From a virus (taxonomy: Duplodnaviria; Heunggongvirae; Uroviricota; Caudoviricetes): a stretch of 32,492 nt of DNA. The stretch's first letter is position 1, and every line of letters starts with the position of its first letter. This document shows positions 2,943-17,836 of this stretch, piece after piece. The notes beneath the pieces were generated by a model that was not told the origin of the DNA, ran no database searches, and saw only the letters and a program-made list of their open reading frames with translations. The stretch is taken from IMG/VR virus record IMGVR_UViG_2744054675_000007, positions 1-32,492 of that record. One strand, written 5' to 3'. The position numbers were made by a program, and so were the translations under genes.

Positions 2943-3287
2943 TTAGTCCTTGCGTAGCTCGCTGATTCTTCTGTAAGTCTCTGGCGCTTTGTTCCCGTGT
3001 ATCTTCATTTCAGACTTCAACAGAGCAACGAGGGAATCCCATTCGTTGAGGATGCCTTTGAATGCCGGAACGCGCTTTGCAACCTTGTTGAATGAATCTC
3101 TGATTTCTGGAATCTGCTCAACAAGTGCAACGCATCGCCGGAAGTCTGCTACGTCATATGGAGCGTCGAAGTGATGACCATAGATATTCTTTTTCAGTCC
3201 ACATGCGATTGAGGCAAGAGTTGCGCTACTGATGCCGACATCGCCTGTCGATTGCCATTTCAAAACCTTCATAGCTAAATCTGACAT
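2943..3287 (-). CDS. hypothetical protein, 114 aa
   Basis: ORF with GGAGA RBS before the ATG at 3287 (MSDLAMKVLK...); a terminator hairpin lies immediately upstream. Confidence 0.55.
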   Translation of the reverse strand: MSDLAMKVLKWQSTGDVGISSATLASIACGLKKNIYGHHFDAPYDVADFRRCVALVEQIPEIRDSFNKVAKRVPAFKGILNEWDSLVALLKSEMKIHGNKAPETYRRISELRKD

Positions 3288-3295
3288 TTCTTGTC

Positions 3296-3322
3296 TCCAA
3301 TAAAAAACCGCCATCAGGCGGC
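3296..3322 (-). terminator. rho-independent terminator-like hairpin directly followed by the RBS of the 2943..3287 gene
   Basis: Minus-strand GCCGCC-TGAT-GGCGG followed by TTTTTTATT, then GGAGACAAGAA-ATG. Confidence 0.5.
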
Positions 3323-3353
3323 TTGGTGTTCTTTCAGTTCTATTGGTTACGTC

Positions 3354-9581: not shown

Positions 9582-9887
9582 TCAATCGTAATAAGCTGGA
9601 ATTGATTTTCCGCGTTGCTTCTGGCGGCCTGAGCATGTCACACCCATTTCACTGCGTGGCTTGCTGTAGTAAATACGATTCTGTTTACGATCGACTTCTT
9701 CTGCTTTCTTGCAGCGAAGGCTTCCGAGTGAAGCTGCTTTGTCTGCTCTGACGCAACCAGAGAGCTTTAGCGCAATCTTTCGCGCCAGTCGCTGTTCTTG
9801 CATTGCCTGTTCACGTTGAGCCTGTCTGCGTGCTCTGCGGCGATTTCTGGCGTTATCGTCAGCCAGATATGTAATGACTACTGTCAT
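9582..9887 (-). CDS. N: antitermination protein N (lambda-like)
   Basis: Arg-rich motif NARNRRRARRQAQREQ near the N-terminus and a C-terminus (YYSKPRSEMGVTCSGRQKQRGKSIP) matching my recollection of lambda N (WYSKPGERGITCSGRQKIKGKSIP); GGAGG RBS; downstream of nutL. Confidence 0.75.
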   Translation of the reverse strand: MTVVITYLADDNARNRRRARRQAQREQAMQEQRLARKIALKLSGCVRADKAASLGSLRCKKAEEVDRKQNRIYYSKPRSEMGVTCSGRQKQRGKSIPAYYD

Positions 9888-10477: not shown

Positions 10478-10496
10478 AAAGGGGCGAATGCCCCCT
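10478..10496 (-). terminator. rho-independent terminator directly after the c2 stop codon
   Basis: Minus-strand GGGGGCATTCGCCCC followed by a run of nine T. Confidence 0.55.
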
Positions 10497-11146
10497 TATG
10501 GAAGGTTTGCTAGTTTTGCATCGACAACTACGCCGATGATTTTGCAGTTTCCGTTGATCTCGATCATCGGATATTGTGGGTTAAGTGGTTTTAGAAACTT
10601 CCTGCCTGCATCAATAACTAACTTCTTGAAAGTTGCCTCGTTTTCTCCTTCGAGCTTTGCAACTACCAGTTTCCCGTTACGCGGCTCTACTTCAGGATCG
10701 ACGAGTATTATCATTCCTTCAGGGATACTGAGACCGGCCGGAGCCGTCATTGAGTCTCCCTTCACGTCCAACCAAAACGAATCTTCTGAACAGTCTACGG
10801 TTGTATCGTACCAGTTATCTATTGCACGCTTATGATATGGTTCCACAGCTTCCATCCAGCATCCTGCGCTCACCCAGCTAATCAGAGGGTATGACCCTCT
10901 TGGATCATGCCTACTGTGATAGGCAATGTTTGAAAGACTTTCCTCTCCTTTCATCAGATAGTCAGGGGAACACTTCAACGCATTAGCCAGGGCGAGAAGA
11001 TTCTCTCCATTTGGCTCTGTCTCAGAGCGTTCCCACTGAGATATGGCAACATTAGACACGCCGACCATCTTTCCAAGTGCGGCCTGCCTGATCTTGAGTT
11101 CTTTTCTCCGAGCGCGAATGCGCTCTCCCATCAATTGAGTTTTCAT
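10496..11146 (-). CDS. c2: CI-type prophage repressor (HTH plus S24 LexA-like autopeptidase domain), P22 C2-like
   Basis: 216 aa; N-terminal HTH (IRQAALGKMVGVSNVAISQWERSE); C-terminal S24 motifs (GDSM Ser and downstream KK); matches my recollection of P22 C2; divergent from cro. Confidence 0.9.
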   Translation of the reverse strand: MKTQLMGERIRARRKELKIRQAALGKMVGVSNVAISQWERSETEPNGENLLALANALKCSPDYLMKGEESLSNIAYHSRHDPRGSYPLISWVSAGCWMEAVEPYHKRAIDNWYDTTVDCSEDSFWLDVKGDSMTAPAGLSIPEGMIILVDPEVEPRNGKLVVAKLEGENEATFKKLVIDAGRKFLKPLNPQYPMIEINGNCKIIGVVVDAKLANLP

Positions 11147-11226
11147 AGTTAAGACATCTTAAATAAACTTGACTTAAGATTCCTTTAGTGGATAATTTAA
11201 GTGTTCTTTAATTTCGGAGCGAGTCT
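11147..11226 (+). promoter_or_regulatory. OR operator/promoter region (PR rightward; PRM presumably leftward)
   Basis: Three TTAAG...CTTAA-type inverted repeats (AGTTAAGACATCTTAAAT, ACTTAAGATTCC..., ATTTAAGTGTTCTTTAAT); TTGACT at 11169..11174 and GATAAT at 11191..11196; GGAG RBS before cro. Confidence 0.55.
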
Positions 11227-12111: not shown

Positions 12112-13059
12112 ATGAGCAATACAGCAAAAATCTACGATTTCAGCGCCGCACACGAGCGCAGGAGCAACAGGATGGAGAACCAGAAAACTGGTTACATTCC
12201 GTTGTACCGGAGCATTCTGAAACAGTCATGGGCGAAAGATGTTTATCTTCGCACCCTGTGGGAAAACCTTCTCCTGAATGCCGCCAGAAAGCCATACAAA
12301 GCGAATTTCAAAGGTCATGAATGGCATCTGCAACCCGGTCAACTGGTTGTGACAGCAGCTGATTTAGGTCTTCAGTTATGCGACAGGCATGGCAAGCCAG
12401 CAAGCCGTGATCAGGTTGAGCGGATGCTTCAGGTTTTTGTGAAAGAGGGGATGGTCTCCATTGATGGAGAGAAGCAAAAAGGTCGTGTGATCACCATCAC
12501 AAATTACCATGAATATGCTCAAAAAATGGACAATTCACCCGCACATGAAGCCGCACAAACAACCGCACATGACGTCGCACATGATGAAGCCAGTAATGGC
12601 GCGGCTTTCAGCGTACATGCCGCACATGAAAGCGCACATGAAGCCGCACAAACAACCGCACATCATGAACAAGAAGGTATTAACAAGAATATAAATAATA
12701 CCCCCCTACCCCCCAATGGGGGAGGCGATGGGCAGGTTAAACCTGAACGTCGCAAGGCAGAACGAATCGACTACGAATCCTTCCTGAACGCCTACAACAC
12801 CGAAGTCGGTGACAGACTTCCACACGCTGTTGCGGTCAACGAGAAACGAAAACGCCGCCTGAAGAAAATCATCCCGCAACTGAAAACGCCAAACGTGGAC
12901 GGTTTCAGAGCGTATGTCAGGGCGTTTGTGCATCAGGCCAAGCCGTTTTACTTCGGAGACAACGACACGGGCTGGACGGCTGATTTTGATTACCTGCTGA
13001 GAGAAGACTCGTTAACGGGAGTTCGGGAAGGGAAGTTTGCAGACAGGGGGATTGCATGA
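12112..13059 (+). CDS. replication initiator, lambda O-like, with internal origin iterons
   Basis: N-terminus [10 protein letters not shown] resembles lambda O (MTNTAKILNF); internal repeated [10 protein letters not shown] peptides encoded by DNA iterons; stop overlaps the helicase start (ATGA). Confidence 0.75.
12536..12720. repeat. origin-like iteron array plus adjacent AT-rich stretch inside the O-like gene
   Basis: At least six GCACATGA-type octamers, including two ~32 bp direct repeats (CGCACATGAAGCCGCACAAACAACCGCACAT), followed by AT-rich TATTAACAAGAATATAAATAATA. Confidence 0.55.
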
Positions 13060-14432
13060 GACAGGATATCGAAGCGAGCGTTATCGGTGGCCTGCTGATT
13101 GGTGGATTAACTCCAACCGCCAGTGACGTTCTGGCAACGCTGGAGCCGGAAGCGTTTTCAATTCCGCTCTACCGGAAAGCCTTCGAGGTTATTCGCAAGC
13201 AGGCGAGAAACAGAAACCTAATCGATGCGCTGATGGTTGCCGAGGCGTGCGGAGAGGAGCATTTCACGTCAATCCTGATGACCAGCAAAAACTGCCCGAG
13301 TGCCGCAAACCTGAAGGGATATGCCGGAATGGTCGCGGATAACTATCACCGCCGTCTGGTGCTGGAAATCATGGATGAAATGCGTGAACCAATCCAAAGC
13401 GGAACCATCGACGCATCGAGTCAGGCGATGGATGAACTTGTAAAGCGTCTTTCAGCCATCAGAAAGCCCCGTGACGAGGTTAAACCTGTACGGTTAGGGG
13501 AAATCATCACTGACTACACTGACACGCTTGACAGGCGTCTGAGGAACGGAGAAGAGTCAGATACCCTGAAGACCGGAATCGACGAACTTGACGCCATCAC
13601 CGGAGGGATGAACGCGGAAGACCTTGTGATAATCGCCGCTCGTCCTGGTATGGGGAAAACCGAACTGGCGCTGAAGATTGCCGAAGGCGTTGCAAGCCGC
13701 GTTATTCCTGGTTCTGACGTCCGGCGCGGGGTATTGATTTTCTCAATGGAAATGAGCGCATTGCAGATTGCAGAGCGAAGCATTGCCAACGCCGGGAGGA
13801 TGTCGGTTAGCGTACTGCGAAATCCTGCATCGATGGATGACGAAGGCTGGGCGCGTGTTGCTAACGGCATGAGTCAGCTTGCAGATTTGGATGTATGGGT
13901 AGTCGATGCCTCGCGGTTATCGGTCGAAGAAATTCGCTCAATCGCAGAGCGGCACAAACAGGAAAATCCAAACCTGTCACTCATCATGGCGGATTATCTT
14001 GGCCTGATTGAGAAGCCGAAAGCAGACCGCAACGACCTCGCAATTGCTCACATCTCCGGAAGCCTGAAGGCGATGGCGAAAGACCTGAAAACGCCTGTTA
14101 TCTCCCTGAGTCAGCTTTCGCGCGATGTTGAGAAGCGACCAAACAAACGCCCGACAAACGCAGATTTGCGTGATTCAGGAAGCATTGAACAGGACGCAGA
14201 CTCAATCATCATGCTCTATCGGGAAGCGGTATATGACGAGAACAGTAGCGCCGCGCCATTTGCTGAAATCATCGTGACGAAAAACCGTTTTGGCTCACTT
14301 GGTACGGTTTACCAGCGGTTCTGCAACGGACACTTTGTTGCATGTGATCAGGATGAAGCCAGACAGATTTGCACAGCATCAAATGCACCTGCTGCGCGTG
14401 GCAGACGATATGCACAAGGGGCGGACGTATGA
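13056..14432 (+). CDS. DnaB-like replicative DNA helicase
   Basis: 458 aa; DnaB N-terminal domain and Walker A GMGKT in a RecA-like C-terminal domain; position after the O-like gene. Confidence 0.9.
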
Positions 14433-14458
14433 CCATCTACATCACTGAGCTTGTAACA

Positions 14459-14489
14459 GGCCTGCTGGTAATCGCAGGCCTTTTTATTT
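14459..14489 (+). terminator. rho-independent terminator (tR2 analogue) between replication genes and the nin region
   Basis: GGCCTGC-TGGTAATC-GCAGGCC followed by TTTTTATTT. Confidence 0.55.
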
Positions 14490-14504
14490 GGGGGAGAGTA
14501 AATC

Positions 14505-14711
14505 GTGGTTGAGTTGATTTTCTCTGCATTGAGGCTTCTCGGTGCTATGTGGATAGTGGCGACGTTCATTGTGGTTGCTGGCTGTTTTGTCCGGTTGGTA
14601 GGCGAAGGTAAAGACCTGGTTGGTGTGCTTTTCGGTAGCATTTTCCTGTGGGTGATTATCGGTGTTATGCCTGTCGCTGTAGCAAAAATGGCGTGGCGTT
14701 TTGTGAGTTGA
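14505..14711 (+). CDS. small hydrophobic membrane protein, 68 aa, GTG start
   Basis: GGGGAGAG RBS then GTG; sequence is almost entirely hydrophobic with two predicted transmembrane segments. Confidence 0.45.
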   Translation: MVELIFSALRLLGAMWIVATFIVVAGCFVRLVGEGKDLVGVLFGSIFLWVIIGVMPVAVAKMAWRFVS

Positions 14712-14728
14712 ACTGAGGATAAGTATCG

Positions 14729-15013
14729 ATGGACGAATCAAGAAAGAAGTTTGAGGAATACGTTGCCAAAAAATTGAAATTACCATTCGAGATGATAACC
14801 GAGGCAAGAAATGGTGATAGGTACTTCGCATTTTCAAGCATGGATATTCGTCACTCCTTAAATGAGTGGTGGGCTTTATGGCAGGCATCGCGAGCAGCTA
14901 TCGAGATTGAGCTTCCTGAAAGCTTTACCATGCATAGTGGGCGAACCCCATATCTGTATGTAAGCGAGGTGCAGAGCGCCATCCGCGCTGCTGGAGTCAA
15001 AGTGAAGGAGTAA
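14729..15013 (+). CDS. hypothetical protein, 94 aa
   Basis: ORF between the small membrane protein and ninB, same orientation. Confidence 0.55.
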   Translation: MDESRKKFEEYVAKKLKLPFEMITEARNGDRYFAFSSMDIRHSLNEWWALWQASRAAIEIELPESFTMHSGRTPYLYVSEVQSAIRAAGVKVKE

Positions 15014-15015
15014 CG

Positions 15016-15426
15016 ATGAAGCAAACAATATTCCTCCGAACTAAGCAACAACAGCAAGCCGCAATCAACGCCATCCTCGCAACACCACTCGATAAAGACA
15101 AGCCAGTCACCATCCGCATTACTGACTACAAGCGCAATCTTGACCAGAACGCAAAATTTCACGCGATGCTGGCGGATATCGCTCGTCAGGTTCAATGGTG
15201 CGGAAAATGGTTAAAACCAGAACAATGGAAGGTTTTGTTGATTAGCGGTCATGCAGTGGCGACAAAGCAGGAAGCTGATGTTTTGCCCGGGCTTGAAGGC
15301 GAATACGTCAACATTCGCGAAAGTAGCGCGCAGATGAGTGTGAAGCGTATGGCAAGTCTTATCGAGTACACAACAGCCTGGGCTATTGGTCAGGGTGTCA
15401 GATTTACCGACAGGAGGTACGAATGA
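15016..15426 (+). CDS. ninB: NinB/Orf-family recombination protein
   Basis: 136 aa; [27 protein letters not shown]... resembles lambda NinB (RSLDQNRKLWACLGDVSRQVEWHGRWL...). Confidence 0.8.
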
Positions 15427-17136: not shown

Positions 17137-17321
17137 ACGCCACAATTCAAACGATACCAGAGCTTCTTATCCAGACACGAGGCAATCAGACCGAAGTGGC
17201 GAGGATGCTTTCCTGCGCAAGAGGAACAGTGCTCAAGTACAACCGAGACAGCAAAGGCGAGCGTCACGTAATAGTTAACGGCGTCCTGATGGTCAAACAG
17301 GGCAAGAGGGGAAGACGATGA
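17133..17321 (+). CDS. ninH: NinH-family protein
   Basis: 62 aa; TIPELLIQTRGNQTEVARMLSCARGTVLKY resembles lambda NinH (TIPDMLVEAYGNQTEVARRLKCSRGTVRKY). Confidence 0.75.
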   Translation: MNATIQTIPELLIQTRGNQTEVARMLSCARGTVLKYNRDSKGERHVIVNGVLMVKQGKRGRR

Positions 17322-17836
17322 GCATAAGAGAACTAAACCTCACCAAAGAGCAGCACGAGTGGCTGAATGGCTGGCTTGAACTGTGGGGCGCATGGGTTTA
17401 TTCAGGTCGTCTGGAAAAGCGCATGAGCAGCGTAATAGCGAAGTTCATGGAGAGCGTAGAGCCGGGAAGAATTATGACAAGGCCAATGTGTAATGATGAT
17501 GATGGAATGTTGATTTCTCAGGTCGTCGATTCCGTCATGTACATTGACAAGAAAGCCTTTGGCATCCTCCTCAGCTACTACGCTCATGGTTCATCTAAGC
17601 GAGCAATTGCATCCTACTATCACGCGACTGCAAAGCCACGCAAGATGTGTGGACGTGGTGGCGAGGGATGGAGAAAACCTTCACTGGCAACCTGTAGAAA
17701 CGAAATTGACGACATCCTGAAAGCGTCGTTATTTGTTTTGTACCAGCCAATGCAAAATGCTTTCAAAATGCGTAAACGTGTTGAGAAAGTTAAGCATGTT
17801 GCTGTTAAAAACCTTGACATGCAATTAGCCATTTAG
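17318..17836 (+). CDS. Q: late-gene antiterminator Q (family uncertain)
   Basis: 172 aa ORF at the canonical Q position between ninH and the late promoter/lysis genes; Cys/His-containing; assignment mainly positional. Confidence 0.55.
   Translation: MSIRELNLTKEQHEWLNGWLELWGAWVYSGRLEKRMSSVIAKFMESVEPGRIMTRPMCNDDDGMLISQVVDSVMYIDKKAFGILLSYYAHGSSKRAIASYYHATAKPRKMCGRGGEGWRKPSLATCRNEIDDILKASLFVLYQPMQNAFKMRKRVEKVKHVAVKNLDMQLAI

Follow-up and report, generated by a model that had tools for sequence, protein, structure and literature searches.

Two nin-region accessory genes between the tR2 terminator and ninB of a P22-like phage

Which genes are placed between the last replication gene and ninB of a temperate phage, when would they be expressed, and what might their products do? 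An earlier sequence-only reading of the DNA analyzed here had described two open reading frames at this locus, one for a small membrane protein of 68 residues with two transmembrane segments and one for an unrelated protein of 94 residues. It had placed both at the position of ren behind a tR2-like terminator and had considered that small membrane proteins at such a site could act as superinfection-exclusion or toxin-like factors. Here, we report on the anatomy of the locus, on the conservation of both genes, on their predicted expression, and on the readings of their function that can be weighed against each other.

The locus and its place in the early-right operon

The window, i.e., the whole stretch of DNA that was analyzed, comprises 32,492 nucleotides of the Caudoviricetes record IMGVR_UViG_2744054675_000007. 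Bases 8000-32492 show ~95-96% identity over 74-77% of the length to the phages Kapi1 and CUS-3, and the window is a P22-like (Lederbergvirus-type) E. coli phage or prophage. The early genes are arranged as listed in Table 1. Within the O-like initiator gene, iteron-like direct repeats with 12-nt phasing (CCGCACATGAAG / CCGCACAAACAA) are found at 12539-12681; they encode a His/Ala-rich repeat of the initiator protein and are presumably the replication origin. The last of the replication genes encodes the DnaB-type helicase, the analogue of P22 gene 12, and ends in a TGA that shares the tetranucleotide ATGA (14429-14432) with the ATG of ninA. Following ninB, small nin ORFs, a Roi/Ant-like gene, an HNH gene, rusA and the Q-like antiterminator gene are encoded in this order. 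The hairpin with its T-run, the GTG-initiated ORF of 68 codons and the ATG-initiated ORF of 94 codons were all found where they had been described before. Taking identity, anatomy and the expression logic outlined below together, we consider it very likely that the nin region of a P22-like lambdoid phage starts with this segment, within the early-right (pR) operon.

Table 1. Positions of the features at and around the locus, numbered from the first base of the window.
Feature	Position	Strand	Basis and remarks
N-like antiterminator gene	9582-9887	minus	
Repressor gene	10496-11146	minus	
pR-like promoter	11169-11196	+ (operon)	sigma-70 consensus scan
O-like initiator gene	12112-13059	+	cII-like gene also in the same operon
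DnaB-type replicative helicase gene	13056-14432	+	Pfam DnaB_C 1.3e-77, DnaB 4.6e-13
ninA, 27-aa hydrophobic micro-ORF spanning tR2	14429-14512	+	phrog_5907, 4.6e-18
tR2 intrinsic terminator	14458-14490	+	terminator scan; stem GGCCTGC/GCAGGCC, 8-nt loop, then TTTTTATTT
Shine-Dalgarno-like GGGGGAGAG	14491-14499	+	5 nt before the GTG; alignment of window, lambda, P22, H-19B and HK022
Gene for 68-aa predicted two-helix inner-membrane protein	14505-14711	+	GTG start; phrog_1165
Gene for 94-aa predicted soluble alpha/beta protein, mosaic family	14729-15013	+	ATG start; phrog_343, E 3.5e-23
ninB, Orf-type recombination mediator	15016-15426	+	Pfam NinB 1e-55; phrog_72
Q-like antiterminator gene	17318-17836	+ (operon)	

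The terminator scan revealed a hairpin of 8 pairs, of which 6 are G-C, at 14458-14481 (AGGCCTGC-TGGTAATC-GCAGGCCT), which is followed by the tail TTTTTATTT. The hairpin is retained in the RNA centroid fold as the sole stable element of the surrounding 92 nt; as a whole, the 92-nt ninA region is no more stably folded than shuffled sequence (z -0.61), and the terminator hairpin alone is structured. From AACAGGCC through GGGGGAGAG the window is identical to the tR2 of lambda and P22, and from AACAGGCCTGCTGGTAATCGCAGGCCTTTTTATTTGGGGGAGAG onward the window, lambda, P22 and H-19B are identical when aligned by eye. Because this identity includes lambda, the terminator is the lambda tR2 itself. The records of HK620 and Nil3 already label the element tR2, and the P22 record labels it a terminator. 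The tR2-like terminator of the sequence-only reading therefore stands, at its site and with a firmer name, but its setting had been missed, since the hairpin lies inside a 27-residue ORF and is not intergenic.

This ORF, ninA, runs through the hairpin and the T-run and ends with its stop codon at 14510-14512, which overlaps the GTG (14505) of the 68-codon ORF (GTGGTTGA). It is annotated as NinA in HK620, HK630 and P22, and 398 phage records were matched in a tblastn search with the peptide, among them lambda (40567-40635). Over residues 1-23, the peptide is the same as P22 NinA, and it agrees with lambda NinA at 22 of these 23 positions. The ATGA junction at the ninA start is kept behind at least six different upstream genes. 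In lambda and P22, the hairpin, the U-tract and the following Shine-Dalgarno (SD) sequence are identical to those of the window, and the same ATGA overlap with the preceding gene is present. However, in these phages ninA is an ORF of 26-27 codons which differs from the ninA of the window in the last four codons and in its downstream partner: it overlaps ninB by ATGA (...CATGAAAAAA), whereas ninA of the window overlaps the GTG of the 68-codon gene (...TAAATCGTGGTTGAG). The divergence begins after the common GGGGGAGAG, which precedes ninB in lambda and P22 and the 68-codon gene in the window. This SD-like sequence, conserved in 51 of 52 distinct upstream versions, thus serves whichever gene comes first after tR2.

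The translation start of NinA was reported to be active, and for a tR2 placed ~30 nt into an ORF translation costs only ~10% of the termination efficiency (Li et al., PMC4824070). With such a small loss, translation of ninA alone is unlikely to defeat the terminator. Several further observations concern ninA itself. Among ~50 distinct versions, the substitutions in the stem (GCA>GCG or GGC>GGT, in either arm) are synonymous and preserve wobble pairing, and four synonymous codons are in use for Leu8; in this shallow sample there are hints of a joint constraint by RNA structure and coding. In one locus (L026), two extra G in the G-run shift the frame of ninA. In the HK022-type loci (L086/L005/L013) the first 10 codons of ninA are absent, and tR2 hairpin, SD and 68-codon gene are retained. 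Here, an ORF has been inserted upstream, and its TAA directly precedes the hairpin, ~45 nt before the 68-codon gene; the terminator is therefore intergenic in these loci, and translation of ninA is not needed.

The assignment to the ren position could not be upheld. In lambda, the order is P, ren (40280-40570), ninA/tR2 (40567-40635) and ninB, and in H-19B it is P, ren, ninA/tR2, a broken homologue of the 68-codon gene and a homologue of the 94-codon gene. The ren gene thus lies upstream of tR2 in both phages and the two ORFs lie downstream of it; their slot is the one from tR2 to ninB, and it can be filled in a phage that also has ren. As H-19B carries ren as well as both ORFs, these are not positional substitutes for ren. 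Moreover, a BLASTP search at E <= 100 yielded no alignment of either protein with Ren. Lambda Ren, which protects from Rex exclusion, is like both ORFs a small non-essential product encoded between the replication genes and ninB, but it differs from them in its gene position upstream of tR2 and in sequence, and it is encoded together with them in H-19B.

The 68-codon gene and its product

The phrog_1165 profile matches the 68-residue product end to end (residues 1-68 of 68, E 4.4e-36), and conservation was assessed in a comparison set of 90 loci with a homologue, made up of the window, nine loci of reference phages and 80 viral contigs. In 88 of them, the frame is open over exactly 68 codons; the exceptions are H-19B with a premature stop and one Salmonella phage with a C-terminal frameshift. 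The H-19B copy (L002, AF034975, 1577-1621) stops after 14 codons, and the stretch from ren to the nin ORFs is unannotated in its record. At the aligned start position, 87 loci have GTG and 3 have ATG. These three belong to the most divergent Salmonella clade, and one of these loci lacks any terminator and has AAGGAGG as a strong SD. Between clades that are 45-57% identical, dN/dS is 0.25-0.37 at saturated synonymous divergence (dS 1.0-1.9), compared to about 0.7-1.3 in shifted frames of the same pairs; in very close pairs of the gene, dN/dS is near 1. Of all frames, only the annotated one is open in all 45 distinct DNA versions (45/45). Two minus-strand ORFs (14484-14888 and 14348-14641) were also considered as real genes and were rejected, each being interrupted in some clade among the 45 versions. 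By these comparative data the 68-codon ORF is a genuine gene. Its conservation at the DNA level, with GTG or ATG at the same aligned position, agrees with the GTG-initiated ORF proposed earlier.

An internal ATG (Met15) was examined as the true start and rejected: the residue is G or L in other clades, and conservation extends over residues 1-14, among them a basic residue at position 10. The GTG start is therefore the conserved one. The records of reference phages treat the gene differently. It is left unannotated in HK620 (L085, AF335538, 795-1001), it is annotated as a 52-residue version from the internal ATG in HK630 (L084, 843-1001) and mEp235 (L001, 1625-1783), and the 68-residue form is annotated in HK022 and mEp213. 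The HK022_58 product of HK022 is 97% identical to the protein of the window over 67 residues, has the same length and is encoded at the same place behind tR2. HK022_58, mEp213 gp58 and orf70 of Stx2-phage 86, all of them hypothetical proteins of phrog_1165, differ in nothing of substance from the protein of the window.

The AlphaFold2 model, which was calculated from an alignment of 29 sequences, is a helical hairpin with helices at residues 2-33 and 38-67 and a mean pLDDT of 89.7. The hydropathy is high (GRAVY 1.61) with Kyte-Doolittle maxima at residues 11-29 and 41-59. Model and hydropathy both bear out the earlier description as a small protein with two transmembrane segments, and two hydrophobic helices with a short polar turn are also the traits of phrog_1165. 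Invariant or near-invariant in the family alignment are G13, W16, F21, K36, D37, W49, G53, P56, K61 and W64. The net charge is +1.5 to +1.9 in the C-terminal flank and about 0 in the turn between the helices. By the positive-inside rule, this charge bias suggests that both ends would reside in the cytoplasm and the short GxGKD(P) turn in the periplasm.

The family is narrow, with 26 clusters at E <= 0.001 in a profile search of 1.84 billion representative proteins. Within E. coli it is nevertheless common: close DNA copies of the gene are present in 530 of 5426 complete genomes (~10%), always annotated as "hypothetical protein". Sequence-profile searches of the PDB gave no meaningful match for the 68- or the 94-residue family, and the products of 27, 68 and 94 residues found no match in Pfam (in a copy without PF26207), NCBIfam or PADLOC. 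A full-text literature search for phrog_1165, PF26207 or the sequence motifs of both ORFs returned nothing, and nothing about either ORF was found in the literature on the nin region, membrane protein and exclusion.

The 94-codon gene and the exchange of both genes

The second protein is unrelated to the first, as had been noted before, and belongs to a family with 194 homologues, nearly all of which carry the precomputed domain PF26207. Its identity is 72% to Sf6 gp48 and 65% to mEp235 gp47, and one relative is named "phiTE_015 family protein" in one RefSeq genome. Three motifs are near-invariant in the family, namely N-terminal MDESRKQFE, central W..WQASRAAIEIELP and C-terminal AIRAAGIKVKE, and the alignment shows that the segments between them are swapped among the members. 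The protein of Sf6 gene 48 is encoded in the same slot before ninB and has the same N-terminal, central and C-terminal motifs; compared to Sf6 gp48 and the "phiTE_015 family", it is the combination of N-terminal and C-terminal half that is unusual in the window. The exact variant of the window was found over >=80% of its length in only 8 of 5426 E. coli genomes and parts of it at 95-99% identity in 368, in line with the mosaic build of the family. In a few database proteins, the N- or C-terminal part of the family is joined to PF10765, PF05766 or PF25688 proteins. The last codons of the gene, AAG GAG TAA, form the SD of ninB, which starts two bases downstream.

For these homologues, a confident common fold was obtained. 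Fold searches with the model of the 94-residue protein retrieved only uncharacterized phage proteins or noise, and structural relatives are present in other, unrelated phages of Salmonella, Pseudomonas and Aeromonas. With low confidence, the protein may be a cytoplasmic protein-binding accessory factor that is built of two recombining half-modules.

The two genes do not always occur together. Among the 90 loci, the 68-codon ORF is followed by a member of the 94-residue family 17 nt downstream in 49, directly by ninB 7 nt downstream in 32, as in HK620 and HK630, and by another or no called ORF in 9. In Sf6 and Gally, relatives of the 94-residue protein are present. As each ORF is found elsewhere without the other, they are separate, exchangeable accessory cassettes between tR2 and ninB. 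The upstream side varies as well, with a DnaB-type helicase, a lambda-P type gene, ren or others preceding the 68-codon gene; in 37 of 90 loci the upstream gene is without similarity to the helicase of the window.

Distant homologues of 63-64 residues and 25-35% identity were placed in three prophage loci by a scan of genome contigs with a narrower alignment. In these loci of Izhakiella capsodis and Erwinia endophytica (L092, L093 and L094; 2498-2692), the gene has an ATGA-type overlap with the last replication gene, which encodes a 448-residue DnaB-type helicase in one and other proteins in two, and it lies upstream of ninB without the ninA/tR2 element. One of them (L093) encodes an 87-residue member of the 94-residue family at 3073-3336, before ninB. 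The slot of first gene after the replication module is hence conserved well beyond E. coli.

Expression and possible function

A simple sigma-70 consensus scan, which weak or non-canonical sites may escape, found no promoter-like site in 14432-15016. SD and start of the 68-codon gene follow immediately downstream of the tR2 U-tract, i.e., the start lies beyond the release point, so that transcripts stopped at tR2 encode neither protein. From the identity to the lambda tR2 that has been used experimentally (PMC4824070) and from the N-like gene, we infer that tR2 would stop transcription from pR and that N would override it. Both genes would then be expressed only from transcripts which are carried through tR2 by N-modified polymerase, and both products would probably be delayed-early products of lytic growth or induction that are silent in the lysogen. 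The 68-residue protein would be translated from its own SD and/or by termination-reinitiation from ninA; the overlapping stops and starts suggest such a coupling along helicase, ninA and the 68-codon gene. Since the HK022-type loci keep hairpin, SD and gene, and the upstream ORF ends before the hairpin, coupling through ninA is optional.

With this expression in mind, we tentatively propose that the 68-residue protein might be embedded in the membrane without enzymatic activity and, in the course of lytic growth, bind or modulate an inner-membrane component of host or phage. It could for example limit the entry of secondary DNA or blunt a membrane-acting host response. With low confidence, it would be dispensable for plaque formation, and in at least one phage, H-19B with its premature stop, the gene is dispensable. 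The gene is carried by phages with different virion types (HK022, HK620, Stx phages and mEp213) and is thus not tied to one DNA-delivery machinery.

The earlier idea of a superinfection-exclusion or toxin-like factor, here taken to mean that the protein would guard the lysogen by exclusion or abortive infection, comparable to SieB, Rex or HK97 gp15, or would damage membranes as a toxin-like peptide, would suit a very small, very hydrophobic protein with two transmembrane segments that is encoded in a variable accessory slot of a temperate phage and occurs widely in the prophages of E. coli (530 of 5426 complete genomes). Inner-membrane proteins of similar small size act as exclusion factors in other phages. 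However, small size and inner-membrane location are the only features that T4 Imm, HK97 gp15 and P22 SieA/SieB have in common with the 68-residue protein, which is without a family match in PADLOC, Pfam or PHROG function. PADLOC returned 0 families at E <= 1, Pfam and NCBIfam were empty, and no partner antitoxin or antisense element is evident on either strand. Unlike SieB or Rex, both genes lie in line in the repressed pR operon past tR2, and expression in the lysogen is not expected for a gene directly behind tR2 without a promoter-like site; this position makes a lysogen-protecting exclusion or toxin role less likely. Its spread over different virion types and the pseudogene in H-19B also argue against it. 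Overall, we found no evidence for this role and regard it as rather unlikely. A related and more specific suggestion, by which the phrog_1165 hairpin would be a dedicated effector of the lytic phase that blocks secondary phage DNA or neutralizes a RexB-type abortive-infection channel, is in our estimate unlikely. A reading as holin finds no basis in the gene order either, as the genes lie ~2.3 kb upstream of the Q-like gene and a lysis cassette would follow Q.

A role in phage DNA replication, such as anchoring the replication complex to the inner membrane or regulating it there, would account for the place right after the last replication gene, which is retained across E. coli, Salmonella and Erwiniaceae prophages, and for the frequent joining to that gene by ATGA or another overlapping stop-start. 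But the gene follows unrelated replication genes, as the 37 of 90 upstream genes unlike the helicase of the window demonstrate, and lambda, P22 and many other relatives are entirely without it. The gene order of the nin region is conserved in general, and position alone is weak evidence; we therefore judge this role to be quite improbable. One or both ORFs might also be non-functional filler, i.e., gene-caller artefacts or decaying remnants that flank conserved recombination junctions. The 94-residue family is indeed most conserved at its extreme ends and in the central motif, coinciding with the junctions of the mosaic, and the codons for its C-terminus also supply the SD of ninB; for the 68-codon gene, dN/dS near 1 in very close pairs and the broken H-19B copy point in the same direction. 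Against this stand the length, frame and start of the 68-codon gene, which are preserved over saturation of synonymous sites (dS 1.0-1.9, dN/dS about 0.3), its recognizable homologues of 25-35% identity in another bacterial family, and the 194 homologues of the 94-codon ORF with their confident common fold and structural relatives in Salmonella, Pseudomonas and Aeromonas phages. We consider filler to be highly improbable, and the modulator of an inner-membrane component remains the reading that we tentatively prefer.

In summary, the terminator is a textbook element, the tR2 of lambda, and both ORFs belong to the accessory genes of the nin region that have been catalogued before; HK022, mEp213, Sf6 and hundreds of prophages have near-copies of the two proteins on record as "hypothetical". 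The correct geography of their slot is "first gene after tR2" and not "ren". For annotation, the comparative data favor the 68-residue GTG form over the 52-residue version or a missing annotation, including that of HK620. The 68-residue microprotein with its two predicted transmembrane segments is a tractable candidate, being narrowly distributed but common (~10% of complete E. coli genomes), with its slot kept as far as Erwiniaceae prophages. If the protein were indeed a dedicated lytic-phase effector, its place as first gene after tR2 or after the replication module would ensure that it is synthesized only after the phage is committed to N-dependent delayed-early expression.
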